Under the pieces are notes generated by a model. That model made no database searches and had not been told where the DNA came from. It saw nothing but the letters and a program-made list of their open reading frames with translations. From the NCBI GenBank assembly GCA_000320545.1, contig ADNK01003061.1:1-64000 (forward strand): a DNA stretch of 64,000 nt, written 5' to 3'. A program made the position numbers and the translations under genes. How positions within the stretch are numbered: position 1 is the first letter of the stretch; the number at the start of each line of letters is the position of its first letter. Shown here one piece after another: positions 22,964 to 61,741 of this stretch. This DNA is from Bigelowiella natans CCMP2755. Taxonomy: Eukaryota > Protista > Cercozoa.

Positions 22964-23576
22964 CAACGAATCTGCGAAACTCTTAGACCATCATATGAAT
23001 AAAACGATAGCATGTGTATATGTGTGTGCACGCGTGCGCGCATGTGCTGTCATGTGTGTGTGCAACGATGTCATTTATGCACGAAAAAACAGTACGTACA
23101 GTATTTGTAGTGCTTGTGCATGGTACACATAGCCTTACGCGCGCGCATGTGTACGATCAATGACTAAATTGCGCATGTCTCTAGCTAGTCTCTAGTGCTG
23201 CAGCCAGCTAGATAGCTAGTAGCACTGCATGCTAAGCATGTTAGCTGCTAGTAGGGGCCGTCACGCGATGTACTACAGACTACACTAGTACATGTATGCA
23301 GCATGCAGGCACATGTGCCCACTGCTGTGCCTATGCGTGCACGCGATCTTCGCAGCACGCTAGCACGATATCGTGTGGTGTGCGTGGCGTGTATGGCGTG
23401 CATGCACACGTGCGTGGCAGGTGGATTTACAGACCATGTACAAATCTAGTAGACGTACATGCGCATGCTAGCATCTAGGCACATCGGTAGCGCATCTCGC
23501 CATCCTAGCATCTCAAAGCGGCGGGTACAGTCTACACTGTGCACACCAGCACAGGACACGCCATGACAGACACTAG

Positions 23577-23694
23577 GACATGCAACATGACATGCATGTA
23601 ACATGTGTGCCACATTGCTGTGTCCATTGTGAGTGTGGCAGACATGCAACATGACATGCATGCAACACATGCACCACATTGCTGTGTCTATCAT
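23577..23694. repeat. Tandem duplication of ~54 bp (period 64) inside a TpA-depleted region
   Basis: 23577-23630 aligns to 23641-23694 with five dinucleotide differences, all TA/TG/CA interchanges. Confidence 0.9.
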
Positions 23695-23951
23695 CGCTCA
23701 CTCTGCTGGCAACCATGTTCCATGTCAGACTCCAGCCATGATCATGGGGACGCTCACAAGTCCATGCACGTGTGCGCACGCATGCAAACACATGTTCGCA
23801 CACCTAGACACTTCACATGCACCATGAGCAAGCACATCGCATGCACTCTTTTCATGTCCACACATGCTAGCATGCCAGCATGTATACATGCTAGCATGCA
23901 TCAAACAAGTCACGACACATGGCATGTGCTGACAATTGTCATGTGTTGTTC

Positions 23952-24491
23952 GCAAGCGGCCGCATCTTGTTGCGCTAAAATTCGACTTTTTTTCTCAAAA
24001 TTCAAATTTTCTTGCTCAAATGCCTTGCAACATGTGTCAGGGTCGTGCATCTGCACTTTTTTTGAAAAAAAACTCACACACGTTCATTTCACAGGTCATT
24101 GAAGGTCGAAAAATGAGGAAAATCGTCCATTTTCTGCAAAAGTTTGACATGAAAACACAACATGATGCGCACCGATTCACATGCAGCGAACGCACAGATG
24201 TGTGCATCGCATGTTCAAGAGATTCCCATTCAAATTCTGGGTTCAATGGCCCATTTTTTGACCCTTGCCGAGAAAGAATGCACATTTTCGTCCGTCAGAC
24301 AACCAATCCCTGGTGTCCCGGGGTGCATTTCAAGCAAAATCGTCTGGAAAAATTGCCACATTGATTTTTCAATGGGAAACACTTGAAGCCATCAGGAATC
24401 GAACCGTGAAGGTCCGGTGGCTCAATTTGCAAAATTGAACAAACTAGCAACAGTCTTGTGGTTTTGAGCGCAACAAGATGCGGCCGCTTGC
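23952..24491. mobile_element. Non-autonomous TIR element (MITE-like, ~540 bp)
   Basis: gcaagcggccgcatcttgttgcgct at 23952 and its exact reverse complement ending at 24491; no coding capacity. Confidence 0.75.
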
Positions 24492-24844
24492 ATTGCCGTG
24501 CATGGTGCATGGGACCACAATGGACTCGTGATCCATGTGTCAGATGCCAACGTGCACATGTCCCGTGTCACTAGTGTCCATTGTGACTCAGCATGAGTCC
24601 ACACACATCATCATGGCACTCCGCATGCACAATGCTGCTGCTGATCTGGTGGTCCATTGCAGTGACATGTAGACAGCTGGACAGCTGGTGCACAGCTTTC
24701 TGGCTTTGCATCATTTGTGCCGCCCGCAAATGAGCTACGCATCCGCCGTGTGCTGAGGTGCAGGCGCTGTCTGCCATGCTGTGACGATGTTGTGCATGCA
24801 TCTGTGATTGTGTGCCTCTGTTCGCGCGCCTCGCATGTTTGAGC

Positions 24845-25716
24845 TCACGTGCAATCAATTGAGCGCATGCACATGATGAGACTGTTCGCGCCTCGCAGTT
24901 TGATTCTGTTGGTTGTGCGCATGCACGCAGTGATGATGGAGAATGCGAGGTCGCGCTGCTTCTTGGTTGACTTTCCTTGGGCGACTGCGAGAGCTTGGTC
25001 CTCAGGAGTCTGACTCAAGAGGTGAGTTCTGGCTTCTTTGGAGTCAAGAACGGAGAGCATTTCCTGTTCGCCTTGTGACTTGGTGACCATCATCTTCACA
25101 GAATCGAGGACGTTGAACTCTTTCATGATTTCTTGCAGCTCTCTCAAGAATGGCAGCTGGGTGGCATCATCGAAGGAGGGAGGCTTGGTTTTCATGGCTT
25201 TCACCCTGGCGATTGCGCTCGCAAATTCTTTGAAGCTTGCGGAGGCTTCGTCGTCCTTGGATTCCACGGCAGTTCCGTTGGGGGCGGGAGGCATTGGCAC
25301 GAGAGCTGGAGGAGCGGGTCATTGTCTGGAAGCAAAGTTGGCTCACAACCTGTCAGAAGTGCAAGCAGCAAAGAGGGCGATGCGGCGGCGGCTAGCTAGG
25401 TGGCGGACAGCAAAGGAGGCAGATGCAAGACGGCTGGTGGGCGATGACGGTCTCAATTCTGTGTTCAAGGAGAACGCAGCTGCACGCGCATGCAGCACAG
25501 TTTTGCTTGTGCTGCCAGAGGAAGCAAACTGGTAGCCACGTGCTGCAACACAACACATTGCACGATGTTGTGCTGCCACGTCGCACTGGCATGTTTGCCA
25601 TGTGCTTCTGCTTGTCGCTGCTTCTGAACGCAGCCGCTTGTCGCCCTTCGGCGAACGCCCGCTGACTGCATGTCGCAGCTTTGCACTTTGGGCATTGAAT
25701 GCTGAGCATTCCAACA
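24845..25716 (-). mobile_element. Truncated Ty1/Copia element: 5' LTR (25351-25716), primer-binding site (PBS) and start of gag
   Basis: LTR-like block bounded on the + strand by tgtcagaa...ttccaaca (restorable to TGTTAGAA...TTCTAACA). On the - strand it is followed directly by ggttgtgagcc, the Copia half-tRNA-iMet PBS GGTTATGAGCC with TA->TG. Then comes a Tyr-free gag-like ORF, 25300-24845 (KPPSFDDA). Confidence 0.75.
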
Positions 25717-26520
25717 TGCGCACATGCACAGCATGCAAGCACTACTAGCTCAGCAAGCTGCCATGCCATGCATGGCATGTTGGACATTCGATCTAGTTCC
25801 AGCATCCATGCAGCTAGCATTGCTCATTGTTTGTCGCGCACTGCCCCACTAGCTAGGCTAGTAGGTGCTGGCACATCGTAGCGTCGGCCTTCGATCGGGC
25901 GTGGCTCACTGTGGATTACGACAAAGGTTTTCATTGCCTGATCACGTTCATCGTGGCTATGTGCTAGCTAGCTACGCATGTATGGCTTGTTGAGATTACG
26001 CACATTGTAGCATAGCGATCAAAGTTCTGTTCCTACCATCAAATACAAGCCAAGGCACAGAATTTATGCCAGCGCCGCTACATGTGACAATATGAATTGT
26101 GTAGATATAGTTATGGCTTCGTTTTATTGTTAGAAAATTGTAATATAGCATGACATCATTTGTATGGTAATATCTGAAGAATATACGCACGTAGTGACGC
26201 CTCGCTGGAAGAGAGATTACCAACCGCTATTGTCCCGATGACACAGCAATAAGGTCGTTGATCTCATCGTGATTGTACATATGCTACAGTGCCAACTCAT
26301 TGAGTCACTTCATTGTTGCTTGTTGTTCATACATGCAAACTCATCGTCCCCGCACCATCACCTATTTACTACGTTACCTCGATTTCTAGGGAACAGAGGC
26401 AGGGTTGTAGTGATTTCGATGGGTTGTAGAAAACAAGGCAGTTCTCATGATGTGTCTCCTTAGAGTCTAGTTATAGGCTAATGAGCAGGACTCCTATAAT
26501 TCTAGTTTTATAAATTGTTG

Positions 26521-41612: not shown

Positions 41613-43529
41613 CGTTGTAATAAGAAGGCTTGTCGGTTTCCCCTTAGTTTAGCCGTGCGTTATACCGAGCTAGATTTCGAAATAAAGAATGCAACATGAT
41701 ATGTTGGTATTAATGCCTACGACAAAATGTGACCTTCCCCTTGCAAATTGCATCTTGTGCGTATAAAATCCGTAGGTCCACAACGTGCCACGATTGCGGC
41801 AATAATTTCACATGGTTATCATAGGACAGGGATTAGAGGGCGGGGGTGGGAGAGAGACCGGGTGGGAATGGTGGGTGGGGCGATAATCCTTATTAGAATC
41901 TAATTCAAAAAGATTAATTGATTTCATTTCCCAGATGTAATATCAACTGATATCTGCAGGTATATAAGGCGGCACCATTGCAGAGCATGTGGTCGCTTGT
42001 TTTGCCATAGGTGCTCTAGCCAGAACATGGCTTTGCCTCAGTTGGAGCTGCACACGCCAGTGAGAGTATGCGAGAGATGCGCTGATAGTCAAGGTCGCTT
42101 TGTTTTCTTCTCTTCTGCAAAATTTAGCCATTGCATACTTCCGAACTCATGAAATTTTAATGATCTCTCTCTCTCCCTCTCTCTCTTTCTCTCTCTCTCT
42201 CTTCAATATTTTCTCTCTTTCCCCCTCCCTCTGTATTTGTGTAACTCAAAAATAACTCGAAAGGGAAAGTAGTAGGCCAGGGGTTTCGCACAAAGGCTGC
42301 CACCCAGCAACGGAGGTAAGATCTTGTAGTTTTGCACACCATGTCCTCTGAGCAATACGGATGCCGATGATGTCATTGTTGTTAACTGGCATTTCATTGA
42401 ATCTACATTCTAGAGTACGTCGGATGTGAAAGATTTGTTTTGTCGCGTTCGAATGGCATTTGATTGCGCTGAATTGTTCTGTGACCACTGCACAGCAGGA
42501 AAAACACCTGGTGGAACTAGGGCAATTTGTCCTCACCATGAACATGGCAGCGTCTTTAGCTTTCAATGCGTTCGATGATGAAGCTAATTGCCCGTGGGGA
42601 CACCAGCTAGCCAGATGGCATCAGCTAATCAGCTACGGATGTGAAGTAGTTGTCTAGTTGTGTGAGTCGTCTCAAGGTCTTCAATCTTCAATGCCACATG
42701 TCAATTGACAAAGATTGAGTTGGAAATTAGTTCCTGAAAACAATGCCGTGTGCCTGTGCATCTCGCCCTCCGTGAAAACATGGACAACGCCCTCATCAAT
42801 GCGAGCAAACTAGCAAGTGGTCCAAATGCATGCTGCCTCGTAGCTTTGCATGACACCAACGTCGCACACGCTAGCACGTGCACTGAGTGCCGCAAGAAAA
42901 GTGCGCGATTATTGCGGCGGACATGCTGTGCTAGTGTGTGTGATGTGCAAGTAACAATGATGACAATGATCACAACCGTCAATGGCGGGGCAGTGTGCAA
43001 GGCACACCTCGCAAAGCGACGCAACTGCAACTTGTGATGCCATCATTAGCGGTCACAACAATTGCCATCATCATCACTTGCACATCACACATCGCAAAGC
43101 GATGCGACAGCATCATGCGACTGCATTGTCATGCTGTGTCACATCACATTGTTGTGCTCATGTTTTGAAGGGGGTGTTTTCAGGGGGAGGGGGTTCCACA
43201 CATCAAAGTGTGCAAGTGCTTTGATGTGCATGTGCACACATGTCAAAAAGTTTTGTTTTGGAAAGCCCCATGAACCCCCTCAATTTGCAAAATGAAGGAG
43301 GTCAGAAAAAAGCACTGATCAAAGTGGGGGTCTAAAAAAAAATGAAGAAGCATGCGATGTCATTGTGTGCTGTGTGCCGTGCCGTGCTGTGTGCTGTGCC
43401 ATGCCATGTGCTGTTCTGTTGCGAAGCGATGTGCCGTGCCGTGCGGTGCCATGCGACTGCTGTGCATGTTGGGATGATGCCATGTGCAAAGCAAAAGGGT
43501 TTTAGCAAAGTTTTGTGTGATGATTGCAT

Positions 43530-43760
43530 TTCCAATGCTTCAAACAACTGGATGATCTCATCGCATTTTCTTTCAATCGCAAAAGAAAGTGCTGTTTTGT
43601 CATCGTTGTTCTTTGCTTCCACATCGGCACTGTTTTCAATCAATGATTCTAGTGTTGTTGTCTTCTTCTTTCTACTTGCCCAAATGAGTGGAGTGTTGTT
43701 GTCATTGTCTTCCGCATTGATGTCAGACACATTGAAGTTGTATTTGGAAGACATGGAAAA
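43530..43760 (-). pseudogene. Ankyrin-repeat fragment abutting the left TIR
   Basis: DINAEDNDNNTPLIWAS...LIENSADVEAKNNDDKTALSFAIE; the frame runs into TIR sequence and is TpA-depleted. Confidence 0.75.
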
Positions 43761-43986
43761 ATACCAGTTCCCTAAAGAAGATGAGAAGAAAGAATACAAG
43801 GTAATAATAAACATTTTTTTATTTACATATATTTATCATTTATTTCAATTTATAATTTCAACCCATTAGAGAGTAATTAGAGAGTGTTGAATGTGTTGAA
43901 TGTTAATATTAAAAGAAAATATATTTACTAATATTATTTCTTATCATTATTCAGCACTCCATTAAATCTCACAAAGCGACTACAAG

Positions 43987-45014
43987 GTGGTGGAGGGTTT
44001 AACAGTTCTACCATATCCACAAGCAATATTCTTTGAGAAGAGAAATGGCCAACAGAGGGTTATATATGCTACTGGAAGAGAGGAGACGAAAGAGGTTAGT
44101 AAGAATGGAAACTGCTATTACTTCATTACTCCTTATGCGAATAGACCAGAGAACGACAAGAAAACCTTCGTGGTTAAAAGCAAATTACGAAAACAAATAC
44201 CGCTCCTAATGACTGATTTCTATGGGGAATTTTTTCCGTTTGAGAATTTAGGAGAAATGCCTGACGACTTGTTTCCCACTGCAGTATTTTACAAAGATGA
44301 AGATGGAAAAAAGATGGTGGTTCAAGCATCTAAAGTCAGCACATTAGCGGATGAAGATGATGTTTATCGTTTCATCACCCCTAGATTCCATAAAGACTAC
44401 ATTGACCTTCACAAGGATGATATAGTCCACATTGAAAGTCTACCAAAACCTGAAGACGAATTTCTTGACGATAAGGATGATGAGAAGAAAGAAGAAACTA
44501 TCAATGTGAACGACCAAAAGCGACCTGAAAGCGATGCTGATGTTGAAGCATCATTTAAAAAACTTGTAGAGAAGTATGAGCAGGGCAATTTGGATGCTGA
44601 AAGAAAATGCATTGACACTCTAGATGTAGAAATGTTGACAAAATTTGTGGAATGTGTTGTGAATGTGTGTCAAAATGAAGATGGGACAAGTGAAATTGAA
44701 CACAAGGTGACTAGAGCAGGGATGACAAAAGTTGACATTGCTAAAGCAACCTGTCAACATTTGCACAATGTTGCTGAAGGAAATTCACAAATTACTTGGG
44801 GAGAAGGTGATACTCTTGACAGAGAAGAGGTGGCGGAAATCTTATTGAAAGATCACAATTGTGTTTGGGTTGGTCATCATCCACAAGCAACATTCTTTGA
44901 GAAGAGAAATGGCCAACAGAGGGTCACATGTGCTACTGGAAGAGATGCGACGAAAGAGGTTGGGAAGAACAAAAACTGCTATCACTTCCTCACTCCTCAT
45001 GCGAATAGACCAGA
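43987..45014 (+). pseudogene. 5' part (truncated copy) of the cargo repeat-domain protein
   Basis: 44108-45014 duplicates 48021-48927; homology breaks at 45014 into TIR sequence; Tyr->His/Cys changes accumulate toward the break. Confidence 0.8.
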
Positions 45015-45583
45015 TGGCATGACAATGCAATGTGACACAGCACAACAATGCAGTCGCACAATGATGCTGTTGCATGACATAGTCGCATCACTCTGCGATG
45101 TGTGATGTGCAAGTAATGACAACAATGATCATTACAACCGCTAATGATGGCATCACAAGTTGCAGTTGCATCGCTTTGCGAGGTGTGCCTTGCACACTGT
45201 GCCGCCATTAGCGGTCATGATGATCATCATTGTCATTACTTGCACATCACACACCTAGTTAGCTTGTGTGGCTACACATCATCCATGTTCATTGTAGCCT
45301 GAGCTATCTTAGCGCACACATTGTCAACGTATCCACCTTTTTACACCACTTGCCTCAATCTATCAACATCTGCCTAGTGTCGTTCAACTGCTTCATTGCA
45401 TTGATCATTGGTGAGTTAAGTCTAGAAGTGTGCAGTGGATTTCACACCACTTGTGTTTGAACACAGCAGTGCATGTGTTTCCTTGTTCTTACTATTTTGA
45501 GTTTCGGAAGGTTGAGTTTTAATTGTACTGGATTGCCGTAGCGCTAATTCAATGAACTCCAAATCAATTTGACACCGACTCAT

Positions 45584-45838
45584 TCACCGTACATTGGAGT
45601 CATCATCACCCTGAACAGGGTCGGAGCTCTTTTCCTCCTCATTGGGAGCGGTGACTATATTTGGGTGCTTTTGTTTGAGATGGCGCGTAAGATTGGATCT
45701 GTAGCGAAATTTTTTGGAGCAATTAGGGCAGGTAAATGGCTGCTCACCACTATGCGACCGAAGGTGGGACAACATGTGGGAACGACCCCTTTTCTCTGCA
45801 TTGCACATCTTGCACCTGTATCGAAGATTCATCCGTCC
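45584..45838 (-). CDS. C2H2 zinc-finger protein, two fingers; last exon, copy 1
   Basis: YRCKMC...HMLSHLRSHSGEQPFTCPNCSKKFRYRSNLTRHLKQKH, with an HTGEKP-like linker. Confidence 0.8.
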   Translation of the reverse strand, partial: GRMNLRYRCKMCNAEKRGRSHMLSHLRSHSGEQPFTCPNCSKKFRYRSNLTRHLKQKHPNIVTAPNEEEKSSDPVQGDDDSNVR

Positions 45839-46114
45839 TGAGATTACGGCAAAAACATTTATACAGTGACATGATTTCCAAATTAGCAAACGTTTTAAAG
45901 TCTTTGAAAATCTCATGATATTTCAAAAAACAGAGTTTCAGAACTCCAAAACAAGATCAAGTCACGAGATCAAACTTCACACTCGTAAATAGATATTTAT
46001 AATCGAATTGTAAGTTTTATGTGACTTAAGTAATATTTCTCATTTAGACCTGGAGGTTTTAAGGAAAAAAAAATCTTTCTTTCATACATGTTTATAACAT
46101 TGTTAACTTACATT

Positions 46115-47041
46115 CTATTTCATCATTACAGTCGTCATGGAAAGACCTGTTTCTTTGTTAATTCTAAGCACAGCTGTCATCCCAACTCCTATCTCCAAGT
46201 TTTTGAGCTCTTCTGATTCCTGATATTCCTCATAATCTGTCACCCCAGTTGAAGTTTCAATATTGTCTTTTGCATCTTGTGCTGCTGTAGCGACAAATGG
46301 GTGGTCCGAACGAACACTGTTCACAACAGGTGTAGCAGTATATGTAATCGGAGGGGGGGCTGGCACACTGGCAATGGCGTAGCTGACGTGGGTTGACTCA
46401 AATCGAGTGGCTGGCAAATTACCCTGAGTTATTGGTGCAGGAAGCTGGGTAGGGATTAAATGGACAGGGGCTCCAACGATTACTGGATGACGAGGATGTT
46501 CTCTATCTTTGGGGGGGGGGAGGAGCACGAACCAGTAGCGTCCTTCTCCCCACTTGACGTGTTGGATTGCAATACTGAACGGGAGATAATGGCGTTTCTC
46601 TATTGGCACGCATCACCGGAACATGTTGCACTCTTGGTGTTTGATAAATCAGGGGCACTGGCGGTACCGTGCTGCTAATGCTGGAATATCCAATTGGCTC
46701 ATAGTTCGGGTACAACGGGACTTCTGGCTGATAAGCTCCCACGGTCTTCGTCTCATATGGAATCGTTGGTTGTATAGCATACACAACACCTATATTGCTA
46801 ATCTCGTTTTCGTAGAGAGTTTGAGATCTCAGAGGATTTCTTGGAACAGCTGGAACAACACGAATCTGCTCGTGATGTTGTGGATAGAGACCATTTCCAG
46901 CATTAACAAGTCTCGACGATGTCGCTTTTCCGGTTACTGTTGCATATCCGGAGCTTTCCTCTGCGTTAAATCTCTTGTCAAATTGGTTACGCACATTTCT
47001 CACGTCATTTCTTGGGATATGATAGGTGGGAGGCTGCTTCC

Positions 47042-47073
<32 letters not shown>

Positions 47074-47420
47074 TCTCTGTAACCTATGAAACAAAGAATA
47101 CAAGGTCGAACCTTGCAATCAATCTTGCAACCAAACCAGCTTTACCTCTCCTCTGTTTTTGATTTTCGCTATTACTGGGGACACATTCTCGTCGCCGCCT
47201 TTTCCTACTATCCAAAGTACTAAAATCTGTACCACATCAAACGCTGATGCCTAATGTTTATTATCCACATGTCTGGTTACTACCTAAGCCAATCTGATGA
47301 CTTTCAGGAATTTCTCTGGAAACCTCTTTGCCATGGCATTTAGCATCTACTTCCCGCTTGGCCACATGCTCTCTAAGGCCGGTGGACATGGTATTCTCAT
47401 CACACACCTTCGCTCGCTCT
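46115..47420 (-). pseudogene. Pro-rich hypothetical protein, frameshifted copy
   Basis: An extra T next to the G10 run at ~46510 splits the ORF that is continuous at 59329-60216. Confidence 0.65.
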
Positions 47421-48020
47421 TTTAGAGATCTACGGGTCTACGGGTAGATGTATACCCAGTTCCAAAAATCAACAGGATTTTATACGTGAGACAACAAATA
47501 TAATTCAAGAACATTGATCAAACAGAGACCACTGGAGCAAGAGTGTGTCTTACCCACGGACGTAACTCGCGATGAAAGACAGCACTTCATAAGCGGTCCA
47601 TTTAGTACGATTTACAATTACATCCCTAAATGATAAAAAAAGTTTATATTTCTGCATAGAATATCTCCAAGAGTGCTAACTTTGTGAGACATAACGTATC
47701 TAGGTTTCTCCTCTCACGTTTACGAAGAAGGTAAAAATCGCTTTCATCAACCATCTCGGCGCGCGGCGCGGCTGAAGTGGCAATTTTGGAACTCTAGCGA
47801 CTTGAAATCTATTAACAAGGAGCGGATTTGTCATCTCGCAGAGCATGTCTGTGATGCGACATGATGAATCTTTGGTTCAAATGAACGGACCAGTAGGGTG
47901 TTCAGCAAAGTTAGATTCTTTCCGAAATTGGCCTGCAAAATACATTTACGCCAAAAAGATTAACAAAAGCACAATTTCCCACATCGTTTCTGAGGTCTAC
48001 GCCCTACGCATTACCTGTAC

Positions 48021-50113
48021 GAAACTGCTATTACTTCATTACTCCTTATGCAAATAGACCAGAGAACGACAAGAAAACCTTCGTGGTTAAAAGCAAATTA
48101 CGAAAACAAATACCGCTCCTAATGACTGGTTTCTATGGGGAATTTTTTCCGTTTGAGAATTTGGGAGAAATGCCTGACGACTTGTTTCCCACTGCAGTAT
48201 TTTACAAAGATGAAGATGGAAAAAAGATGGTGGTTCAAGCATCTAAAGTCAGCACATTAGCGGATGAAGATGATGTTTATCGTTTCATCACCCCTAAATT
48301 CCATAAAGACTACATTGACCTTCACAAGGATGATATAGTCCATATTGAAAGTCTACCAAAACCTGAAGACGAATTTCTTAACGATACGGATGATGAGAAG
48401 ATAGAAGAAACTGTCAATGTGAACGACCAAAAGCGACCTGAAAGCGATGCTGATGTTGAAGCATCATTTAAAAAACTTGTAGAGAAGTATGAGCAGGGCA
48501 ATTTGGATGCTGAAAGAAAATACATTGACACTCTAGATGTAGAAATGTTGACAAAATTTGTGGAATGTGTTGTGAACATGTATCAAAATGAAGATGGGAC
48601 AAGTGAAATTGAACACAAGGTGACTGGAGTAGGGATGACAAAAGTTGACATTGCTAAAGCAACCTGTCAACATTTGCACAATATTGCTGAAGGAAATTCA
48701 CAAATTACTTGGGGAGAAGGTGATACTCTTGACAGAGAAGAGGTGGCGGAAATCTTATTGAAAGATTACAATTATGTTTGGGTTGGTCATTATCCACAAG
48801 CAATATTCTTTGAGAAGAGAAATGGCCAACAGAGGGTCATATATGCTACTGGAAGAGATGCGACGAAAGAGGTTGGTAAGAATAAAAACTGCTATTACTT
48901 CCTTACTCCTTATGCGAATAGACCAGAGAACGATAAAAAGACCTTTGTAATAAAAAGCAAATTACAAAAACGAATACCGCTTCCCTGTGAGAATTTCGCA
49001 AAAATGCCTAATGACTGCTTCCCCAAGGCAGTATTTTTCAAAGATGAAGATGGGAAAATGATGGTGGTTCAAGCAGATGAAGAACACTATGAGGATGGAT
49101 TATATTCTTTCAGCACACCTAAATTCCACGAAGGACATATATTTATTCCCGAGGATAATATAGTCCACATTGAAAGTCTACCAAAACCTGAAGACGGATT
49201 TCTTGACGATACGGATGATGAGAAGGAAGAACAAGAGGAAAAAAAAAAGAAGGAAGAAAAGCACAAGAAGAAGAGAATTGATATGATTTTGAGTAGTAGC
49301 GAGAGTGAAGATGAAGAGTCCAGCAGTGACGAAGGACAACAAGAAGAAAAGGAAACACCAAGAACTCCAGTGATGGAATTTTATTTTTCTGATGAAGCGA
49401 TGAAAATACTCAAAGAGAACTTGACAACGGAACAGTTCAAAATCGTCAATGCTGGTTTCAACACACAGAGAGGTGCTACAAAAGAGGCGGAATATCAACA
49501 GGAAATTGAAAGGTCCAAGCACCATGATGAGATTAAAAAGAAGTATAAAGTGCAAATAAAAAAACCCAGCGACTTGGACAAAGGACTACATGTTACTGAT
49601 GCTAGGATTGAAGAAATTCTGAAGAATGCTCCTCATTGCCCAGTGATGAGAAATGGGATTACCAAAAAATACTTCAATGGTTGGTTTGGACTCGTTCGTA
49701 AAAAAAAAGAAAGTGGAGGAAAACTTGCTCCTGCCTCAGTTGGATGCTTTCATTCAAATGGAATTTGGACTTTCAAAAATGCGAAAGAAAGGGAATTCCA
49801 CATCAAAGAGCATTTTGAAATGTCCAAAGAACAAGTCCCATTGAACCCTTCAAATCTCCCTGTTGATGAAGTGATGGATGTGCATCAGCATTCACAAGAG
49901 TTGAAAGAGGGTGAGAGTGCGAACAAAAAAGGAAAGAGACAAATTCAAGAGTGCATTTTGGATTCACACCACATTCAACGATTTGAGCATGAAATTCCTT
50001 TTGAACTCAAAATGGGACAAAGCACTTGGGTTGATTTGAAAGATGCGGACGGCAAATCACGACTGACACCAGATTCCTTTTGGTTCAAATCAGTGCAGGA
50101 AAAGAACACTTGA
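48021..50113 (+). CDS. Intronless hypothetical protein with an internally repeated domain and acidic/basic tracts (element cargo); N-terminus displaced to 43987-44107
   Basis: 676-aa ORF in which CYYF.TPYANRPENDKKTFV.KSKL...FP.AVF.KDEDGK.MVVQA...IVHIESLPKPED occurs twice; no family recognised. Confidence 0.7.
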
Positions 50114-50334
50114 TGATTTCTGCAAAAGATGTCAAAACACATTGTGTGTGAAGATCATCATGTGAAACTTTGCTAAAATCCTTTTGCTTTGCACATGCCA
50201 TCATCGCAATGTGCACAGCAGTCGCATGGCACCGCACGGCACGGCACATCGCTTCGCAACAGAACAGCACATGGCACGGCACAGCACACAGCACGGCACG
50301 CTAGCACGGCACACAGCACACAATGACATCGCAT

Positions 50335-51187
50335 TGTGGTCGGTCATGACCACCAAGTGCGTGCTTGTGTCACAGCATGCAGTTTTGTTCTAGTTTGGTC
50401 TTGGTAGTGGCATGTTAGACACATGCGTTTCCATGTGCAATGCATGCATGCTTGCGCATTTGCCTCAGGCAGTGCGACAGGCTTTCTAAGTCATGTGCAC
50501 ACTAGGTGGCATGCATGTGTTTAGTTTCCATCATGGTTTCTTTTGTGTGCAAGTTTGTGGACACATGTGAGCCTGATTGCATGGGTGCGCGTTGGCATGC
50601 AAAGGTGTGCATGTTGCATGCGTGGCATGAGGGTTTCTGCATGATGTCACATGGGTTTAGATGGCATATCAGCATGATGTGACATGTCAGCATCGTGTGG
50701 GTGATGGTCACATTCTTCCAGTGCAGCTTGATGATGAAGCACATGGATGGGGAAGCAGCACTAGGAAGTGATGCAGTTGCCCAATTCATGTGCATGTGTG
50801 GGGACAAAATGAGTTGGCAAGTTTGCGCATTGTGGCCCCGCTTGGGCCAGTGCGACATGGAACAAGTTGGGTTGCAAAAGGGAACTTTTGCAGCACAAGT
50901 CAGCGAAACAATGTCAGGGAAAAATGTCACCCTTTCAATCTGAAAATGGCGTGATGTGATGTGCTCAACTGAACTAGTTGCAGCAAAGTGAAACGCGCGC
51001 GCAAAAGTCAAAAGACCCGCGTGCGAGCGGTGATGTCCTCTTGGGATCTTGTTTTGGCATGCATGCTCAAGCTCCTCACAATGTGTTTTCATCATCAGGG
51101 TTTTGGTGTTTTGTTTTCAATGAGCATTGATTGCATTGACGTGCAACAACAAGCATCAGCTGGCAGCGCATCTGTTGGCCAATCACA
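50335..51187 (+). repeat. Gypsy 5' LTR
   Basis: Direct repeat of 57109-57961; tgtggtcgg...ggccaatcaca. Confidence 0.95.
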
Positions 51188-51188
51188 C

Positions 51189-51197
51189 TGGTGGCGG
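51189..51197 (+). promoter_or_regulatory. Primer-binding site tggtggcgg (possibly TGGTAGCGG, initiator-tRNA-Met type, before TA->TG)
   Basis: TGG begins 1 nt after the LTR end; the tRNA identity is inferred. Confidence 0.6.
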
Positions 51198-54100
51198 TTT
51201 TGCTTTGCAATGATGGATCAAGGGATCGACGAAGAGCCTCAAATCGACGTTTGGAGTCCCACAAGGGCGATGAGCAAGGTGGAGGTCAAAAATTCAAGTT
51301 CAAATGATGTTGAGAATGGAGAGGAGAGCAAACCGGATTCAGATGCATCAGCATTGGGGCCGGCGGCTTCCTCGGAGTCGGAAAGTTCTCAGGGGGAGGC
51401 TTCGCCCCCTCACAATCTGTTGGAAAGAGTGAGTGATCTGTCAATCTCGGATTTTGAAAAGGTTGCAGCTTTGGCATTGCAGATGGATGGCATCAAGGCC
51501 AACACGGCATTGGATTTCCGATGCCTGAAAGAAGCGGGTGGATTGAAAGAGTTCACTTGTGAACGTTGTGGAGCTGAAGGAACTTGTGCGGACACCTGGG
51601 AACAAGCTCTGCTCATGGTGGAGGACCCGGAGTGGAATTTGCCTGAGTTGAAAGGAAACAAAGTTCAACAGGTTTCTGTTGGCGAGGTTGCGAAAGCGAT
51701 GGAATCTCACCGGCGACACTGCCCTGTTGAAGAAAAATTGTGCGTGGCGGCTTCAAGCCCTTCCCAGTTTCGCCGGAAAGCCAGGGGCCTGCAACAAAAA
51801 ATTCTGGTTCGTGCAGAGCTTGCAGGGCAAAAAGATTTGGCTTTTGGTTTCAAACACTTCAAAACATGTCTCTCGCCTCACACCTTGCTTGGACTCCAGC
51901 GGGAGGCAGTTCGCAACAATCATGCGTTGGCCTCGCCAAGACAGCAATTTGATCTTGCTCTCCAATGTTTGGGTGGTGAGCAGGACCCAAACGAATTGGA
52001 GGAATTGTTTGAGGACCGATCAGGTGAACTGAGAACTGGGAGGTTCCAGCATGCAGACGTCATGCACAAATGTTTCTCGGACCTCCTTGCAGAATTCTCT
52101 GGTCCAGGACTGAGCAATGGAGATGAAGTCAAGCACTTTGGAAAACCATCACATGGGCATTGCTTGGCTGAAAAATTCGCAGCCCCGCTCGTGGGAGTGA
52201 GGCCAGGTGAAGTGGATGCCTTGGTTGATCACCTCCGGCCGTTTGAGGAGGGGCATCGTGGGGCCATGCCTGTGCGTTCTGACGTGGCTGGTCTGCCAGT
52301 GGGGAAAACACAGAAGGAATGCAACCACTTCAAGAAAGGGCGGTGCCAGCATGGGAATCGATGCAAATTTCTTCACGTGCAGGATGGTTTCCAGAAAAAT
52401 GAACCCAAGTGCACGGAAGAGCAGCTTGAACAGATGAAGCTGCAGGATTGCAAGTTGTTCAAGACGGGACATTGTGGGTTTGGAAATGAGTGCAAGTTTG
52501 AGCATGCGGTGGGACAGGGTGCGATGCTTCATGAAAGTGCTCCTGGTTTGGCGACCCACGCTTGCGAGGATGTTCCGGCTTTGGAGCCCCAGGCTTGTGA
52601 GAAGACTCGCATTCAGCCTGAAGGACCAGAATCCTTGGTGCTGGGAATTGAGGAGCAGTTGATGAGTCAGGGACAGGGAGTTGACCAGAAAAAGCCGTGT
52701 GACTTGGATCCCACCTTGCGCAGCAGGAAAAAGCTGAAGTGCTTCCTGCGTGGTGAGGAAGGGGCTCCAGCGGTGATGGCTCTAGCAGACGACGGGGCGC
52801 AGCCAACTTCAATTTCGGAGGGCTTGTGCCAGAGGCTCGCCCAGGAAGGCGTGCAGTTCAAGTCGAGGAGTGTGGCAGGAGTCATTGGGGGCCTTAACTC
52901 GTCGGTGACTGACAAAATTGTGCGGGAAGTTGAGTTTTTTGTTCAGATCAAAAAATTGAAAAAGTCGGGGGAATGCATTGGATTGAAAATTTTTGCATTG
53001 GTGCTTTCAGGTCCGGTGTCGCAGGACTCAGTGATGGGCATTGATGCGCAAAGTGTCTGCCGTGTTGTTTCCTTGAAGGATCCGGATCCTGCGAAACGTT
53101 TGGTGTCCATCAACGGAGACTTGGTGCACTCTCATCCGTGCAACGTTGATGTTGCGTCGACGGATGTTGCGACAGTGCTGGGGATGGAGATGGCGTCTGT
53201 GAGATTCCTCACTGATGCAAAGCAGAATGCTGATCCGAAGGTGAAAGGAGACGGAGTCTGTCTGGATGGTTTGTCGCCTGAAGTGCAGCGGGAATCAAAG
53301 GGGTCAGCAGATCATGATTTCATCAATGATCAAGCTGATGTCATCGAAGGTTTGGACCTGCCTGACATTGATGTGCAGTCAGTTGCAAATCCCATGCGGT
53401 CAGACAAGAGTGTCGTTGCAAAACTGGGGGAGATTTTGCCCATCTCCCAGTTTGGGGACCAGCGTGGAGTTGCAAATTCGGAGTTGTGTGGTGGGCATGT
53501 TCTGCAAATGCTGGACCGGATGGAAAAGGAGAAGGACACTGGTGTGTCGATGCTGCAAGGAATGCAGCAGTTTTGTCATCTCCGCATGACAGTCTGCAGG
53601 TTCCAGAAGCACCTGGTGGAGAAATTGCCCGAAGTGGGCAAATGCAAATCAAAAGAGCCACACGATGTTCAACGTTGGCTTGAGCCTGGTGTCAAACCAG
53701 TGCGGCAACGCCCGTGCCACCTGGAGCCAAGTGAGCTTGAGCTCATGAAATCAAAGCTTGACCAGATGGTGCAAGATGGGCTTTGTTTCAAAGTTGCTGA
53801 CAACACCTCGGAGTGGTCTTCGCCTGCCTTTGGAGTTTGTGACAAGGGAAAGGCGCTGCCGAGGATTGTGGTGGCCATGGGTGGGGTCAATGGCCTCACC
53901 CGGCTGATGCATGCTGTGTGCCCGGTCACCAAGGACACGATCCGTGGGCTCATGGGAGCAAATTGGGTGATCGTGTCGGATGGCAAGGCAGCCTGGCGCC
54001 AACTCGGAAGCACGCACTGTGCAATGATGGTGTTTGTGTTTGTCACGTTGTTCGGGAGCTTCGCGAGTGAGGGCCTGCCCATGGGCCACAAGAATGCCCC

Positions 54101-54801
54101 ACAAGTTTGGGCAGAAGAGATGGCGACCAGGTTCCTCGTGGGGATGCCTGACACCATCGTGCATTTTGACGACTTCTTCACAGTGGGTCAGTCGCCAATG
54201 CAGGCCCTCCTCGCATTTGCGTGCTTCGTGCAGCAATGTGAACATTGTGATGATCACCAGAGTGTGACTGAGTTGCACGTGTTCCCCAAGCGCCTTGCGG
54301 CGGTGGGGCTCATCAAGGAAGATGGGTCACATCACCCGGATCCCCAGCGCACGAGCGCCATGGACGAATTGGCGCGGCCTGTGAAAGGAAGGCGGTTTTC
54401 AAAGCACGTGCGTCGCATCATTGGGTTGTTCGTTTGTCGTTTGGAACACGTGCAAGGTTTTTGGGATGTGGCTGCGCCCATCAAAGCGCTGTCGGTCAAG
54501 GACGCTGTGCAAGAATGGACGGACGCCCACGACGCCAGCTTGGACAAGTTGAAGCGCATGCTCAAGGAAGCTGTGCTGCACGTGCCGGATTGTGAGTTGA
54601 TCTCTGTGGACGCGCCGTTCATCGTGGACACGGATGCATCCGATGCAGCTGGCGGCGCGACGCTGTCGCAGATCACAAATGGCAAAGAGAGGCTGTTGTC
54701 TTGCCATTCGTTCGCATGGAAGGCGAGCGAAAGGGCATGGCACATCGTGCGCAAGGAACTCACAGCGGGCGCAAAGGGACTGCATCGGTTCCAGCACACG
54801 A

Positions 54802-55217
54802 TGTCAGAAGTGGATGGCGGCGCGGTGCAGAATGCAGGCCAATGGCGCGATTGGGTCGAGGCAGGAAGGAAGGAAGGAAGGGCAGGAGGACAGCTGCACA
54901 AGCGGCTGCCTCAATTCCACGTTGAATTCTGACCTTTTTCACATGCATGCACCAAGTCAATTGCTCATCAGGCGAAATCACCTGAAACCAAACGTGCTGC
55001 AGCGAGCCAGGCAGTTGGGCTCACTTCCTTTGCTGCCACAAAGGAAGTGCATGCAGCGTTGTGCCGCGACATGCTTGTCGCAGGCACACAACTCGCCTGC
55101 ACTCGCAGCCTCTTGCTTCGTGCTTGTCGCAGCCTGCAAACGCCCGCAGATCTCTCTGCCGTTGCAGCTGGCTGCTCGAGCAAGCACTTCGCGCGCTGAG
55201 TGCAAAGCACTCCAACA
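54802..55217. mobile_element. Copia-type solo LTR (416 bp) nested in the Gypsy RNase H
   Basis: tgtcagaag...cactccaaca flanked by the 5-bp TSD cacga (54797-54801 and 55218-55222); termini resemble the LTR at 25351-25716. Confidence 0.85.
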
Positions 55218-57084
55218 CACGATCAAGGGCTGTCCCGTGCGTGTGCGCATGGATGCCAAGACTGCGCGACGTTTTGCGCTGCGTGGTCAGGACAAAGTGC
55301 AGCTGCCCTGCACAAAATTGAGTGCTGCGCATGCTGGTCATTCTTTGGTCGGAGTCGAGCACCGCAAGGGTGAGTGCCACACAAACGTGGATCCGTTTGG
55401 CAGGCCTGCTGCGGATGAAACGCGCGAGGAGAAGAAGCGACACCGGCAATCATTGGAGGCTTTGTTTCCCATGCACGTGGAAGCGGCCAAGTCCACTGCG
55501 TGCTGTGCCAAGGAAGTGTCTCTGTCTTCACGTCTGGCGCATGAGACCACGACAGACTTTGAGGTTGCTTGTGCATCTGTGTGCAGCATTGCGCCCACGT
55601 TGGAGTGTGGGGCGATGGAAGTGCGCATGGAGTCGCTGTTGCCGGAGCACAAGCTGGCGCAACAAGAACAGGATTTTGGCAAAGTGATTGCTGCGCTGCA
55701 GGATGAAGACAGCGCTGATCACTTGCTGGTGCGCTCGCGATGCAAGGTCGTGGATGGTGCGCTGCATCACGTGGGAGCTTTCCAAGTTGGTGACAGCATC
55801 TCGCTGCAGCTGTGTGTCCCAGCTGCAGATCGCATCAAAGTGATGCAGGCTCACCACGTTGATGACATGTCAAATCATCGCAATGCGAATGATTTGGCTG
55901 CCCGGGTTCTGCTCACTTGTCATTGGCCCGGACTGCAGCGAGATTGCCGAAAACTTGCAAGGGGCTGCCAAGTTTGCATGCGGACTGAGACACGCATGAG
56001 GCAGACCCCTCACCAGCAACGTGCCGACAATGAGCTGAATGGCACTGTCGCGGTGGACACCATTGGTCCGGTTGAAGGAACCAAGCATCACGTCCAAACG
56101 CTTTGCATCGTGGCCATCGGATGCATCTGTGCGCGGGCTGTTGAAAGGATTGGCTCGGCCAAGACTGCAGATTTCATTGTGACTTGCATTCTTCAGTGTG
56201 GTTGCCCCAAAAAGATCCTGATGGATCAGGGCCCAGAAAATGCAGGAAACACAATGACACATTTGCAGAATGGGCTGCGGCCAAAGTGCCTCAAAATCTC
56301 GGCGAAGAACAGCCAAGGGAACTCGGTTCTGGAGCGAAAGCATGGGGCTGTTGACAACGGGATCATGGCCATGCTGCTCCAGAACCTTGACGAGAGAACG
56401 AATTGGCACCAGCACCTGGATGTGATTGCGTTCAGTGCAAATGCCACCACCGATGAAAATGGATGCTCTCCCGCGAGGCTTTTGTTTGGACATCAACCAA
56501 AATTCCTCGCGGATGTGAAAGCCAAAAGCCTGGGTGTCCCGGACATGGTTCGGATGGATGAACGCATCCGGGGGCTTGAAAAAATCCGTTCACTTTGTGC
56601 CACGCTCAAGGAGGACTGTGAGCTTGCAAAAAATTTCAAGCGCAATGAAAAGCTTGAAGTCCAAGATTCTTTTGCTGTGGGAGATCTCGTTTGGTTGCAT
56701 CGTGAAGAAAATGGAAGCCAGAATGCTGTGACCAAAAAGCACCAAGTTGATAAGACGGGGCCAGTTGCGGTTGCATCGAAAAGTGAGAAGGGAAATGCGC
56801 ATGTTGTTGTTGATCTTGCTACGGGTTGCAAAAATGATGTTCATGCTGAACACCTTTCCCCGTGTGGCACTTTCAGGGAGCTCCCTCCACTGAAGGAAGT
56901 GTCGCCGGACAGTGCATGCGATGATGCTTCTGATGGTCCTGTGAGTTCTTCTGGCTCTTCAGATTCCATCGGACCGGCTGAGGGTCGGGTTTCGCGGGCT
57001 GATGTTCCACCTGGCAAGCGTTGCCGCAAAAAGGTGGATTTTGGTCCTTTCATTTCTTGGGGTGTGAGCCCTTGTTTTTCTTCC

Positions 57085-57105
57085 AAAAAAGGGAGGGGGG
57101 GGGAG
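57085..57105 (+). promoter_or_regulatory. Polypurine tract
   Basis: aaaaaagggagggggggggag ends 3 nt before the 3' LTR. Confidence 0.85.
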
Positions 57106-57108
57106 TGG

Positions 57109-57961
57109 TGTGGTCGGCCATGACCACCAAGTGCGTGCTTGTGTCACAGCATGTAGTTTTGTTCCAGTTTGGTCTCAGTGGTGGCATGTTGGACACGTGC
57201 GTTTGCATGTGCGATGCATGCATGCTTGCGCATTTGTCTCAGGCAGTGCGACAGGCTTTCCAAGTCATGCACACACCAGGTGGCATGCATGTGTTCAGTT
57301 TCCATCATGGTTTCTTTTGTGTGCAAGTTTGTGGACACATGTGAGCCTGATTGCATGGGTGCGCGTTGGCATGCAAAGGTGTGCATGTTGCATGCGTGGC
57401 ATGGGGGTTTCCACGTGATGTCACATGGGTTCAGATGGCATGTCAGCATGATGTGACATGTCAGCATCGTGTGGGTGATGGTCACATTCTTCCAGTGCAG
57501 CTTGATGATGAAGCACATGGATGGGGAAGCAGCACTAGGAAGTGATGCAGTTGCCCAATTCGTGTGCATGTGTGGGGACAAAATGAGTTAGCAAGTTTGC
57601 GCATTGTGGCCCCGCTTGGGCCAGTGCGACATGGAACAAGTTGGGTTGCAAAAGGGAACTTTTGCAGCACAAGTTAGCGAAACAATGTCAGGGAAAAATG
57701 TCACCCTCTCAATCTGAAAATGGCGTGATGTGATGTGCTCAACTAAACTAGTCACAGCAAAGTGAAACGCGCGCGCAAAAGTCAAAAGACCCGCGTGCGA
57801 GCGGTGATGTCCTCTTGGGAGCTTGTTTTGGCATGCATGCTCAAGCTCCTCACAATGTGTTGTCATCATCAGGGTTTTGGTGTTTTGTTTTCAATGAGCA
57901 TTGATTGCATTGACGTGCAACAACAAGCATCAGCTGGCAGCGCATCTGTTGGCTAATTGCA
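57109..57961 (+). repeat. Gypsy 3' LTR
   Basis: Direct repeat of 50335-51187; tgtggtcgg...ggctaattgca. Confidence 0.95.
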
Positions 57962-58809
57962 CGCATGCTTCTTCATTTTTTTTTCGACCCCCACTTCAAT
58001 CAGTGCTTTCTAGCTTTTTTATGATAGACATGCAATACACAATATATATAATATATATAGTGTATTGCTAATCTATTATTTTTCTGACCTCCTTCATTTT
58101 GCAAATTGAGGGGGTTCATGGGGCTTTTTGAAACAAAACTTTTTGACACATGTGCACACGTCTAGATGTGCATCAAAATGCTTGCACACTTTGATGCATG
58201 AAACCCCCTCCCCCCAAAAACACCCCCTTCAAAACACAAGCATGACAATGCAATGTGACACAGCACAACAATGCAGTCGCACAATGATGCTGTCGCATGA
58301 CGTAGTCGCATCGCTTTGCGATGTGTGATGTGCAAGCAATGACAACAATGATCATTGCAACCGCTAATGATGGCATCACAAGTTGCAGTTGCATCGTTTT
58401 GCGAGGTGTGCCTTGCACACTGTGCCGCTATTAGCGGTCATGATGATCATCATTGTTGTTACTTGCACATCACACACCTGCTAGTTAGCTTGTGTGGCTA
58501 TGCATTATCCATATTCATTGCAGCCTAAGCTATCTTAGCGCACACATTGTCAACGTATCCACCTTTTTACACCACTTGCCTCAATCCATCAACATCTGCC
58601 TAGTGTCGTTCAACTGCTTCATTGCATTGATCATTGGTGAGTTAAGTCTAGAAGTGTGCAGTGGATTTCACACCACTTGTGTTTGAACACAGCAGTGCAT
58701 GTGTTTCCTTGTTCTTACTATTTTGAGTTTCGGAAGGTTGAGTTTTAATTGTACTGGATTGCCGTAGCGCTAATTCAATGAACTCCAAATCAATTTGACA
58801 CCGACTCAT

Positions 58810-59064
58810 TCACCGTACATTGGAGTCATCATCACCCTGAACAGGGTCGGAGCTCTTTTCCTCCTCATTGGGAGCAGTGACTATATTTGGGTGCTTTTGT
58901 TTGAGATGGCGCGTAAGATTGGATCTGTAGCGAAATTTTTTGGAGCAATTAGGGCAGGTAAATGGCTGCTCACCACTGTGCGACCGAAGGTGGGACAACA
59001 TGTGGGAACGACCCCTTTTCTCTGCATTGCACATCTTGCACCTGTATCGAAGATTCATCCGTCC
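58810..59064 (-). CDS. C2H2 zinc-finger protein; last exon, copy 2
   Basis: Same translation as the copy at 45584-45838. Confidence 0.8.
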   Translation of the reverse strand, partial: GRMNLRYRCKMCNAEKRGRSHMLSHLRSHSGEQPFTCPNCSKKFRYRSNLTRHLKQKHPNIVTAPNEEEKSSDPVQGDDDSNVR

Positions 59065-59328
59065 TGAGATTACGGCATAAACACATGATTTCCAAATTAG
59101 CAAACGTTTTAAAGTCTTTGAAAATCTCATGCTATTTCAAAAAACAGAGTTTCAGAACTCCAAAACAAGATCAAGTCACGAGATCAAACTTCACACTCGT
59201 AAATAGATATTTATAATCGAATTGTAAGTTTTATGTGACTTAAGTAATATTTCTCATTTAGACCTGGAGGTTTTAAGGAAAAAAAAATCTTTCTTTCATA
59301 CATGTTTATAACATTGTTAACTTACATT

Positions 59329-60659
59329 CTATTTCATCATTACAGTCGTCATAGAAAGACCTGTTTCTTTGTTGATTCTATGCACAGCTGTCATCCCAAC
59401 TCCTATCTCCAAGTTTTTGAGCTCTTCTGATTCCTGATATTCCTCATAATCTGTCACCCCAGTTGAAGTTTCAATATTGTCTTTTGCATCTTGTGCTGCT
59501 GTAGCAACAAATGGGTGGTCCGAACGAACACTGTTCACAACAGGTGTAGCAGTATATGTAATCGGAGGGGGGGCTGGCACACTGGCAATGGCGTAGCTGA
59601 CGTAGGTTGACTCAAATCGAGGGGCTGGCAAATTATCCTGAGTCATTGGTGCAGGAAGCTGGGTAGGGATTAAATGGACAGGGGCTCCAACGATTACTGG
59701 ATGACGAGGATGTTCTCTATCTTGGGGGGGGGGAGGAGCACGAACCAGTAGCGTCCTTCTCCCCACTTGACGTGTTGGATTGCAATACTGAACGGGAGGT
59801 AATGGCGTTTCTCTATTGGCACGCATCACCGGAACATGTTGCACTCTTGGTGTTTGATAAATCAGGGGCACTGGCGGTACCGTGCTGCTAATGCTGGAAT
59901 ATCCAATTGGCTCATAGTTCGGGTACAACGGGACTTCTGGCTGATAAGCTCCCACGGTCTTCGTCTCATATGGAATCGTTGGTTGTATAGCATACACAAC
60001 ACCTATATTGCTAATCTCGTTTTCGTAGAGAGTTTGAGATCTCAGAGGATTTCTTGGAACAGCTGGAACAACACGAATCTGCTCGTGATGTTGTGGATAG
60101 AGACCATTTCCAGCATTAACAAGTCTCGACGATGTCGCTTTTCCGGTTACTGTTGCATATCCGGAGCTTTCCTCTGCGTTAAATCTCTTGTCAAATTGGT
60201 TACGCACATTTCTCACGTCATTTCTTGGGATATGATAGGTGGGAGGCTGCTTCCGAGTAGTAGTAGTAGTAGTAGTAGTATCTCTGTAACCTATGAAACA
60301 AAGAATACAAGGTCGAACCTTGCAATCAATCTTGCAACCAAACCAGCTTTACCTCTCCTCTGTTTTTGATTTTCGCTATTACTGGGGACACATTCTCGTC
60401 GCCGCCTTTTCCTACTATCCGAAGTACTAAAACCTGTACCACATCAAACGCTGATGCCTAATGTTTATTATCCACATGTCTGGTTACTACCTAAGCCAAT
60501 CTGATGACTTTCAGGAATTTCTCTGGAAACTTCTGTGCCATGGCATTTAGCATCTACTTCCCGCTTGACCACATGCTCTCTAAGGCCGGTGGACATGGTA
60601 TTCTCATCACACACCTTCGCTCGCTTCTTTAGATCTAGTAGAGGTATACCCAGTTCCAA
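59329..60659 (-). CDS. Pro-rich hypothetical protein, intact copy; probably several exons
   Basis: 295-aa open frame at 59329-60216 plus a likely upstream exon in 60468-60659; no family recognised. Confidence 0.55.
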
Positions 60660-61741
60660 AAATCAACAGGATTTTATACGTGAGACAACAAATATAATTC
60701 AAGAACATTGATCAAACAGAGACCACTGGAGCAAGAGTGTGTCTTACCCACGGACGTAACTCGCGATGAAAGACAGCACTTTATAAGCGGTCCATTTAGT
60801 ACGATTTACAATTACATCCCTAATACATGATAAAAAAAGTTTATATTTCTGCATAGAATATCTCCAAGAGTGCTAACTTTGTGAGATATAACGTATCTAG
60901 GTTTCTCCTCTCACGGTTACGAAGAAGCTAAAAATCGCTTTCATTAACCACCATATCGACGCGGCTGAAGTGGCAATTTTGGAACTCTAGCGATCTTTGG
61001 AAAAGAAAACGACCTTGAAATCTATTAACAAGGAGCGGATTTGTCATCTCGCAGAGCATGTCTGTGATGCGACATGATGAATCTTTGGTTCAAATGAACG
61101 GACCAGTAGGGTGATCAGCAAAGTTAGATTCTTTCCGAAATCGGCGTGCAAAATACATTTACGCCAAAAAGATTTAACAAAAGCACAATTCCCCACATCG
61201 TTTCTGAGGTCTACGCCCTACCGGTCTACCGGTACGCATTACCTCGTAGCATTTCTGCAAACGATAGAATAAAGAGAATGCGACAATTATTTTTCATTGT
61301 CGCTATCATCTAATTTAAACGATATCAAGTATTGTCGTCACTAAAAATGGACCTCATTTGTTGGGAGAGGGAGATGTCGCTCTTGGGAATTGCCGAATCA
61401 ATCTACTTCCCTACCCCTACGCTCCACACCCTTCCTTCCACCAATGGACAATCGGCTCTGTTTCAAGTCTTCTCTTTTCTCATAACTGCGACCAAATTGA
61501 TAATTCTAAGCGCCACCGTGATCCATCTATTCATATTTATATGCGCTATTCTTACAACCACAAAAGGGATGCAATCGAGAGGTTCTTCATCGCCAGCATT
61601 ATATACACCCTTTTTCGTTGCCAAAATGCTTGCTGTGCAGTTCATGAACATGAAATCTCATTCATTAACAAATTTCAATTTTACCATTCCTGAATATGAT
61701 AAACATACTTCTGTAAATCTTTTATGTGCTACGTGCGAGAC

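Follow-up and report, generated by a model that had tools for sequence, protein, structure and literature searches.

A copy of a transposon gene in Bigelowiella natans CCMP2755, located near 44 kb in the 64,000-nucleotide stretch analysed here (the window; contig ADNK01003061.1), has lost TA dinucleotides to CA and TG towards one of its ends, very probably through a transposon-recruited TpA hypermutation that leaked into neighbouring DNA after a rearrangement had set this copy beside the end of a terminal inverted repeat (TIR). The process itself is already known in this species: Mettrop et al. (10.64898/2026.01.13.699255) examined two integrated viral regions and counted 231 de novo mutations, all but one of which (230) are A>G or T>C at TpA; the TpA>TpG/CpA rate is ~6e-7 per site and generation, and only some lines show the activity. 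The same preprint reports 124 low-TpA clusters and an enrichment of RT and DDE domains among low-TpA coding sequences, and proposes an ADAT2-like deaminase. In relation to its main text, the new elements are a gradient in flanking DNA, a context rule for the bases around TA and the sparing of long duplications; that main text never uses the terms LTR, flanking, spread or CTAG and holds no LTR-pair, flank or CTAG analysis (its supplements may contain contexts and cluster lists covering this locus). A literature search, with subscription papers and bioRxiv supplements outside its range, returned no other report of TpA>CpA/TpG erasure. An earlier, sequence-only reading of this DNA had recognised the direction of the change, which stands; it had overlooked how the loss fades away from the rearrangement junction next to a transposon's end, three farther sites that differ in the opposite sense and the previous description of this mutation type for B. 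natans in the 2026 preprint.

Loss of TA in one copy of a duplicated segment

The earlier reading claimed that 150 bp of the 44-kb copy differ from their paralog at 11 positions, each a destroyed TA, and an ungapped comparison of 44851-45000 with 48764-48913 reproduced this exactly. The differences lie at 44854, 44861, 44878, 44891, 44927, 44930, 44964, 44970, 44983, 44991 and 44998; the 48-kb copy has TA at all 11, which read CA (8), TG (2) or GA (1) in the 44-kb copy, and the peptides quoted for the two copies agree with the translations. Only 2 of the 13 TA in 48764-48913 survive in the 44-kb copy, in the contexts CTAC and CTAT. All 11 changes fall within TA bases, which make up 17% of the 150-bp stretch (hypergeometric p=5e-10), and none of the 68 A/T bases outside TA has changed. 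Eight of the 11 changes are non-synonymous (four Y>H, two Y>C and two I>T), and non-coding DNA is affected as well; on these grounds and that of the untouched A/T bases, codon selection and GC-biased conversion were both rejected.

Over the whole pair (copy D, 44108-45014, against its twin D', 48021-48927) the picture is less absolute than in these best 150 bp, since the 27 mismatches comprise 18 TA found only in the 48-kb copy, 3 found only in the 44-kb copy and 6 others (18 versus 3, p=0.0015). Among the 18 losses in D, 16 are TA>CA/TG and two are transversions, a proportion that counts against a pure TA>CA/TG mutator when compared with the single non-standard change among 211 in the NCLDV region of the preprint's main text. 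The three sites of opposite sense (44250, 44500 and 44713; 3 of 21 TA differences) count against a strictly one-way loss; all belong to the resistant class described below, lie where the outgroup gives no reading and may be C>T gains. Products on both strands are present in D (10 CA versus 6 TG, p=0.45). A strand bias in the 150 bp (8 CA versus 2 TG) was considered and is not significant (p=0.11; 10 versus 6 overall).

The losses are graded. Counted in successive 150-bp bins towards 45014, D has lost 0/10, 0/8, 3/8, 2/6, 3/7 and 10/13 of the 52 TA present in D', with none of 18 lost in its first 300 bp, and lost sites lie nearer to 45014 than kept ones (Mann-Whitney p=4e-5). When TA preceded by C or followed by G is taken as protected and the remainder as unprotected, all 11 unprotected TA within 170 bp of 45014 are lost and none of the 10 beyond 620 bp (p=3e-6), whereas none of the three protected TA near 45014 is lost (p=0.003); these classes were first noticed among survivors in the erased zones and then applied to the D pair, which leaves this test only partly independent. 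A fit over 33 sites gives a decay length of 191 bp (interval 120-380).

It is very unlikely that the end of D was patched in from an older erased paralog, by gene conversion or as an assembly chimera, with a gradient that has nothing to do with local leakage. Other genomic copies of parts of the element do exist, as seen from contig loose ends, and the 45014/45017 junction is crossed by no contig piece among those listed for three DNA runs, whose listed rows lie outside the 150 bp. An older paralog, though, would bring non-TA differences, of which the last 345 bp of D have none; the loss is graded over 600 bp and not stepped; and D-type alleles at 44609, 44717 and 44770 are present in contigs of all three DNA runs. 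The contigs of these runs over 42300-49600 are mosaics of D and D' alleles, showing that both allele sets exist without giving their phase. Of the sampled words of 43900-53800, a fraction of at least 0.83 is present in 14 of the 24 listed runs, one of which may be the window's own source; the erased sequence therefore cannot be put down to a single assembly. Among the listed runs containing locus words, none is on record as RNA.

Direction of the change

An older internal repeat unit of the same gene (44014-44150) serves as outgroup and spans nine of the 11 sites (44854 and 44861 lie outside it). It reads TA at eight and TG at 44970, so that T is ancestral there too, and TA or T is thus found at all nine covered sites, in line with the use of this repeat as outgroup in the sequence-only reading. 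A further 12 CA/TG sites are common to D, D' and the outgroup and are unchanged. This supports TA as the ancestral state, the 44-kb copy as the derived one and a direction of TA to CA/TG.

Repeat-induced point mutation (RIP) of fungi makes TpA from CpA. The opposite direction, in which a fungal-type RIP or the decay of CpG would have made TA from CA/TG in the 48-kb copy and the outgroup, can be given practically no credence and is already refuted by the outgroup: it needs convergent events at the same eight sites in two copies while the 12 common CA/TG persist, which makes a convergent CA>TA change implausible. The exclusion of CpG decay in the earlier reading holds: such decay would require two steps in two copies, and none of the 10 CG sites of distal D differs, contrary to 5mC decay from an ancestral CG. 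Some C>T decay does coexist with the loss of TA, for CG versus CA/TG differences are present in three pairs (0, 4, 3 and 4 in the respective segments) and the erased zones show a mild shortage of CG (0.5-0.8).

Organization of the locus

Self-comparison and junction views give the order left TIR, gene start, D, R, F, D', rest of the gene, right TIR with a Gypsy element inside, and F' (Table 1). The simplest history inferred from this order is a tandem duplication of the segment from D' to F' in which the first copy lost its middle part, so that the end of D would have come to lie beside the TIR end.

Table 1. Features of the window that bear on the loss of TA.
Positions	Strand	Feature	Basis
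7692-8183	-	Frame with a NOC3/CBF exon of the host; 49% of the frame matches jgi/Bigna1/144874 at 100% identity	Only match of the frame
23100-25999	.	Second island of TA erasure, edges graded; surrounds a MITE-like element (23952-24491) with inverted ends of 29 bp	TA profile
42400-42935	.	Flank outside the TIR element, eroded	TA classes, read depth
42936-43524	.	Left terminal inverted repeat of the ~4-kb TIR element, TA nearly absent	Self-comparison
44014-44150	+	Older repeat unit inside the gene of the TIR element, outgroup	Repeat comparison
44108-45014	+	D, 907-bp duplicate copy from the gene of the TIR element; loss of TA increases towards 45014	Self-comparison
44851-45000	+	Most eroded end of D, 11/13 TA lost	Pairwise comparison
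45015-45016	.	Rearrangement junction; 2 extra bases lie between D and the right TIR's outer end	Junction view
45017-45254	.	R, ~240 bp at the outer end of the right terminal inverted repeat, multi-copy repeat; loose ends at 45254	Self-comparison
45255-48021	.	Flank F, duplicated at 58478-61236 (F')	Self-comparison
48021-48927	+	D', twin copy in original context, >1.2 kb from the right TIR, TA kept	Self-comparison
49700-50334	.	End of the TIR element's gene and inner right TIR; 0 easily erased TA, 2 resistant	TA classes
50335-57961	+	LTR retrotransposon of Gypsy/Ty3 type, inserted into the right TIR	LTRs 50335-51187 and 57109-57961, target duplication CGCAT
50973-54932	+	gag-pol frame (zf-CCCH, RT, RNase H), 1319 aa, 0 Tyr, RT motif HFDD	Domain search
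54601-57123	+	Integrase-containing frame, 840 aa, 0 Tyr	Domain search
57962-58477	.	Outer right TIR, TA-erased save one insert	Self-comparison, TA count
58010-58080	.	~71-bp hairpin-forming insert, not in the left TIR, 16 TA kept	Fold, TA count

Erosion is not confined to the duplicated gene. Other genomic copies of the TIR, read by eye at contig loose ends (43123, 43289 and 43403), have TA where the window has CA/TG, and the flank outside the left TIR retains 2 easily erased against 15 resistant TA, compared with 660 against 405 in host DNA (p=3e-5); its depth, a rough guide, is single-copy-like in 3/3 DNA runs. A second pair points the same way: 8 of 21 TA differ in R and its first 170 bp of flank, against 9 of 155 farther out (p=1e-4), and beyond 45420 F and F' keep 146 TA while 9 differ, so that a long linked duplication is not in itself erased.

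R and its duplicate R' have lost four TA each since the duplication, with two further CA/TG doublets, which indicates that the mutator acted at this TIR end afterwards, and R is the likely nucleation point for the gradient in D. It is on the other hand conceivable, if unlikely, that the same mutator was nucleated by a piece deleted later (an inner TIR, a retroelement or another insert) and not by the present TIR end: the outer flank of R is only partly eroded, with 1-3 easily erased TA per 100 bp, whereas D has none within 170 bp, so the nucleating piece may have been deleted; moreover, the junction carries two extra bases and the deleted part is not visible. The losses in R and R' speak against this, as does the flank of the left TIR itself, which is erased over ~500 bp.

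A rough clock, from 5 non-TA events in 797 bp at the baseline rate of the preprint, would make the duplication ~9 million generations old. Set against the peak rate of the preprint, ~1e-5 per TA per generation if a region of 55% A+T is assumed, such an age suggests that the gradient would reflect falling local access or rare episodes and not a short time.

Within the outer right TIR, the 58010-58080 insert folds at about -14 kcal/mol as DNA (90-bp stretch folded) and is likely a young insertion, or else a protected structure. There is an abrupt boundary at 43790-43960, where 170 bp of AT-rich, intron-like DNA adjoining the erased zone hold 23 unprotected TA; part of this DNA occurs in other genomic contexts (loose ends 43885 and 43992), and an ankyrin-repeat fragment on the minus strand (43335-43832) overlaps the inner left TIR.

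The gene of the TIR element yielded no Pfam match, no homolog among 7989 scored candidates, no Atlas match and no relative among viral contigs (0 of 32 candidates); residues 226-297 of the protein P0005 (43966-45105) match phrog_7799, a family of unknown function (E=4e-11). RNA depth is 0 over 44008-44983 in 6% of one RNA run, a weak sign of silence. RNA reads do occur just outside the TIR ends, in partly eroded flanks, at 42544-42787 (+) and 45228-45715 (-), with depths of at most 14 and 12.

A TA-erased retroelement and other targets

The most complete erasure is found in the Gypsy element, whose 5921-bp interior holds 4 TA against 312 expected, with observed/expected ratios of 0.01 for TA, 1.51 for CA and 1.52 for TG and no other dinucleotide below 0.74. 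Over 53001-56000, TA is 0.00 in all three sub-windows, with mean CA/TG of 1.58-1.73, figures whose register and averaging differ from those of the preprint's table. The two frames together contain no Tyr in 2159 aa, compared with a median of 2.9% among 150 relatives. Neither the 4 TA nor a Tyr-free RT could be yielded by change from CA/TG to TA. Tyr residues of the closest relative, P0127, align with His or Cys in the two frames at 12 of 34 and 17 of 26 positions; as counter-evidence, only 3 of 11 Tyr-majority columns of 150 distant RT relatives read His or Cys here.

The LTRs (853 bp, 34 differences) differ at 13 TA sites, 12 of them protected, and at 5 CA/TG doublets, a class that can also derive from CG. 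Two TA-rich LTRs erased independently would show far more doublets. Most of the erasure therefore probably preceded this insertion, with further erosion after it; conversion between the LTRs is an alternative account of the few doublets. The pattern suggests that a largely TA-erased retroelement, its RT motif now HFDD, was still copied and inserted, presumably in trans.

In the second island, around the MITE-like element, erosion ends ~140 bp short of the stop codon (22963) of an intronless glutaredoxin frame, just upstream of which lie three tandem units of ~60 bp (21500-21683).

Flanking bases and the chemistry of the change

The survival of TA depends on its neighbours. The density of TA in 13.6 kb of erased zones (insert 58010-58080 excluded) divided by that in 43 kb of host DNA gives ratios of 0.02 for ATAT and for ATAA/TTAT, 0.06 for TTAA, 0.10-0.14 for the ATAC, ATAG and GTAA classes, 0.25 for GTAC and CTAC, 0.38 for CTAA and 1.51 for CTAG; that is, 2-6% of TA survive between A/T flanks, 10-14% with one G/C flank and 25-38% in GTAC, CTAC and CTAA, while CTAG is not depleted at all. 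Resistance alone is insufficient to explain a CTAG density 1.5 times that of host DNA, and the excess may include new sites from C>T decay. Protection is symmetric, since changes at protected sites, read on the A>G strand, number 10 at CTA(not G) and 10 at (not C)TAG, which fits a property of the duplex such as the ease with which the TA step opens.

TAG is the best site of ADAR enzymes. Here it is a resistant site, which is one reason why an A-to-I editing of RNA by an ADAR-type enzyme, followed by reverse transcription and integration, is extremely unlikely as the source of the losses, even if it is an LTR retroelement that is most strongly erased and its LTRs were largely erased before this insertion, as their doublets indicate. 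D is a duplication of DNA that carries changes on both strands rather than one, flanks outside the elements are affected, and de novo mutations of this type arise in DNA in the mutation-accumulation lines described in the main text of Mettrop et al.

Deamination of adenine in chromosomal DNA is the chemistry we lean towards, with a chance slightly better than even: the A of TpA would be deaminated to hypoxanthine and read as G at replication, and the enzyme would reach A best where an A/T-flanked TA step opens. Oxidised thymine also miscodes, and because TA is palindromic, A>G and T>C are indistinguishable. The same targeting and direction could accordingly come from a lesion on thymine (5-hydroxymethyl- or 5-formyluracil pairing with G) or from an error-prone polymerase, or a repair step, working at TA within silenced DNA, a possibility that we regard as rather improbable but not negligible. 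Recognition of the duplex, as suggested by the symmetric protection, would suit it, and the known DNA-editing ADAT2 has another context (PMC10354150); against it stand the 5'-T preference typical of adenosine deaminases and a B. natans ADAT2 candidate carrying a residue linked to DNA editing, both as given in the main text of Mettrop et al.

Comparison with known systems

The closest known system is the TpA hypermutation of B. natans itself, which shares, in the preprint's main text, the species, the dinucleotide, the two products, action at the DNA level and independence from duplication; A>G or T>C change confined to TpA, on both strands and in chromosomal DNA, is likewise found here. The NOC3 frame agrees with B. 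natans as host, since its only match, jgi/Bigna1/144874, belongs to this species; this is the evidence of one gene, and a search with the glutaredoxin frame gave no placement of the lineage. The published targets are an integrated giant virus and a virophage region in which TpA is still 3.3% and 9.2%, with high-depth repeats excluded from calling, whereas the targets here are an LTR retroelement and TIR- and MITE-like elements in which erasure has gone to about 1%, and this locus adds a measured gradient into the flanks and a rule for the bases next to TA.

Long linked duplications trigger RIP. The present case differs from RIP in direction (TA>CA/TG) and in that duplicates of 907 bp and 3 kb go unaffected away from the ends of elements. 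What the two share, judging from the available text on RIP with leakage (PMC9453070), is a hypermutation by transitions at a specific dinucleotide, which strikes both strands of selfish DNA and spills over into single-copy flanks; a comparable leakage into adjacent DNA is seen here at 42400-42935 and in the gradient of D.

As for possible chemistry, an ADAT2/3 with DNA activity in amphioxus (PMC10354150) and the TadA-derived adenine base editors deaminate A to I in DNA and give A:T>G:C. The amphioxus enzyme is a poor match, since in the available text of that paper BjADAT2 favours TCG/GAA and hairpin loops and acts on C as well (C>T), whereas the TA-rich hairpin insert is intact here; it is the one natural ADAT2 shown to edit DNA, and that text shows no role for it in defence against transposable elements.

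Taken together, the proposed sequence of events starts with a local duplication and deletion that would have put one 907-bp copy next to the end of the transposon's terminal repeat. The element ends may be marked as foreign, plausibly by the single H3K9me3/H3K27me3 state that covers transposable elements and repressed genes in B. natans according to the available text of 10.1101/2025.03.17.643675. A mutator recruited to transposon DNA would then act at TpA on either strand with a reach declining into the neighbours, fading in D over about 600 bp, and its nucleation at multi-copy element ends would proceed probably via silent chromatin rather than by pairing of duplicates. A more ambitious version is possible but doubtful as a whole, namely a true reverse of RIP in which a DNA adenine deaminase guided by the heterochromatin of transposable elements, nucleated at multi-copy ends and reading the openability of TA, decays over about one nucleosome repeat and strips retroelements in repeated rounds, with erased copies still mobilised between them, and in which the same would hold in diatoms.

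Significance for Bigelowiella natans

The published direct evidence for TpA hypermutation consists of two viral regions in one preprint, whose main text infers the extension to transposons from composition. At this locus B. natans itself offers a natural experiment on transposon-linked DNA, in which a single sequence can be compared in two settings and an outgroup gives the direction. It sets out properties that any candidate enzyme must reproduce, namely action on both strands, a decay of ~190 bp, a preference for A/T flanks, immunity of CTAG and no response to plain duplication. Should that enzyme prove to be an adenine deaminase, the engineered adenine base editors would have a natural counterpart in genome defence. 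D itself likely preserves a fossil record of the TA-erasing defence that was described for B. natans in 2026.
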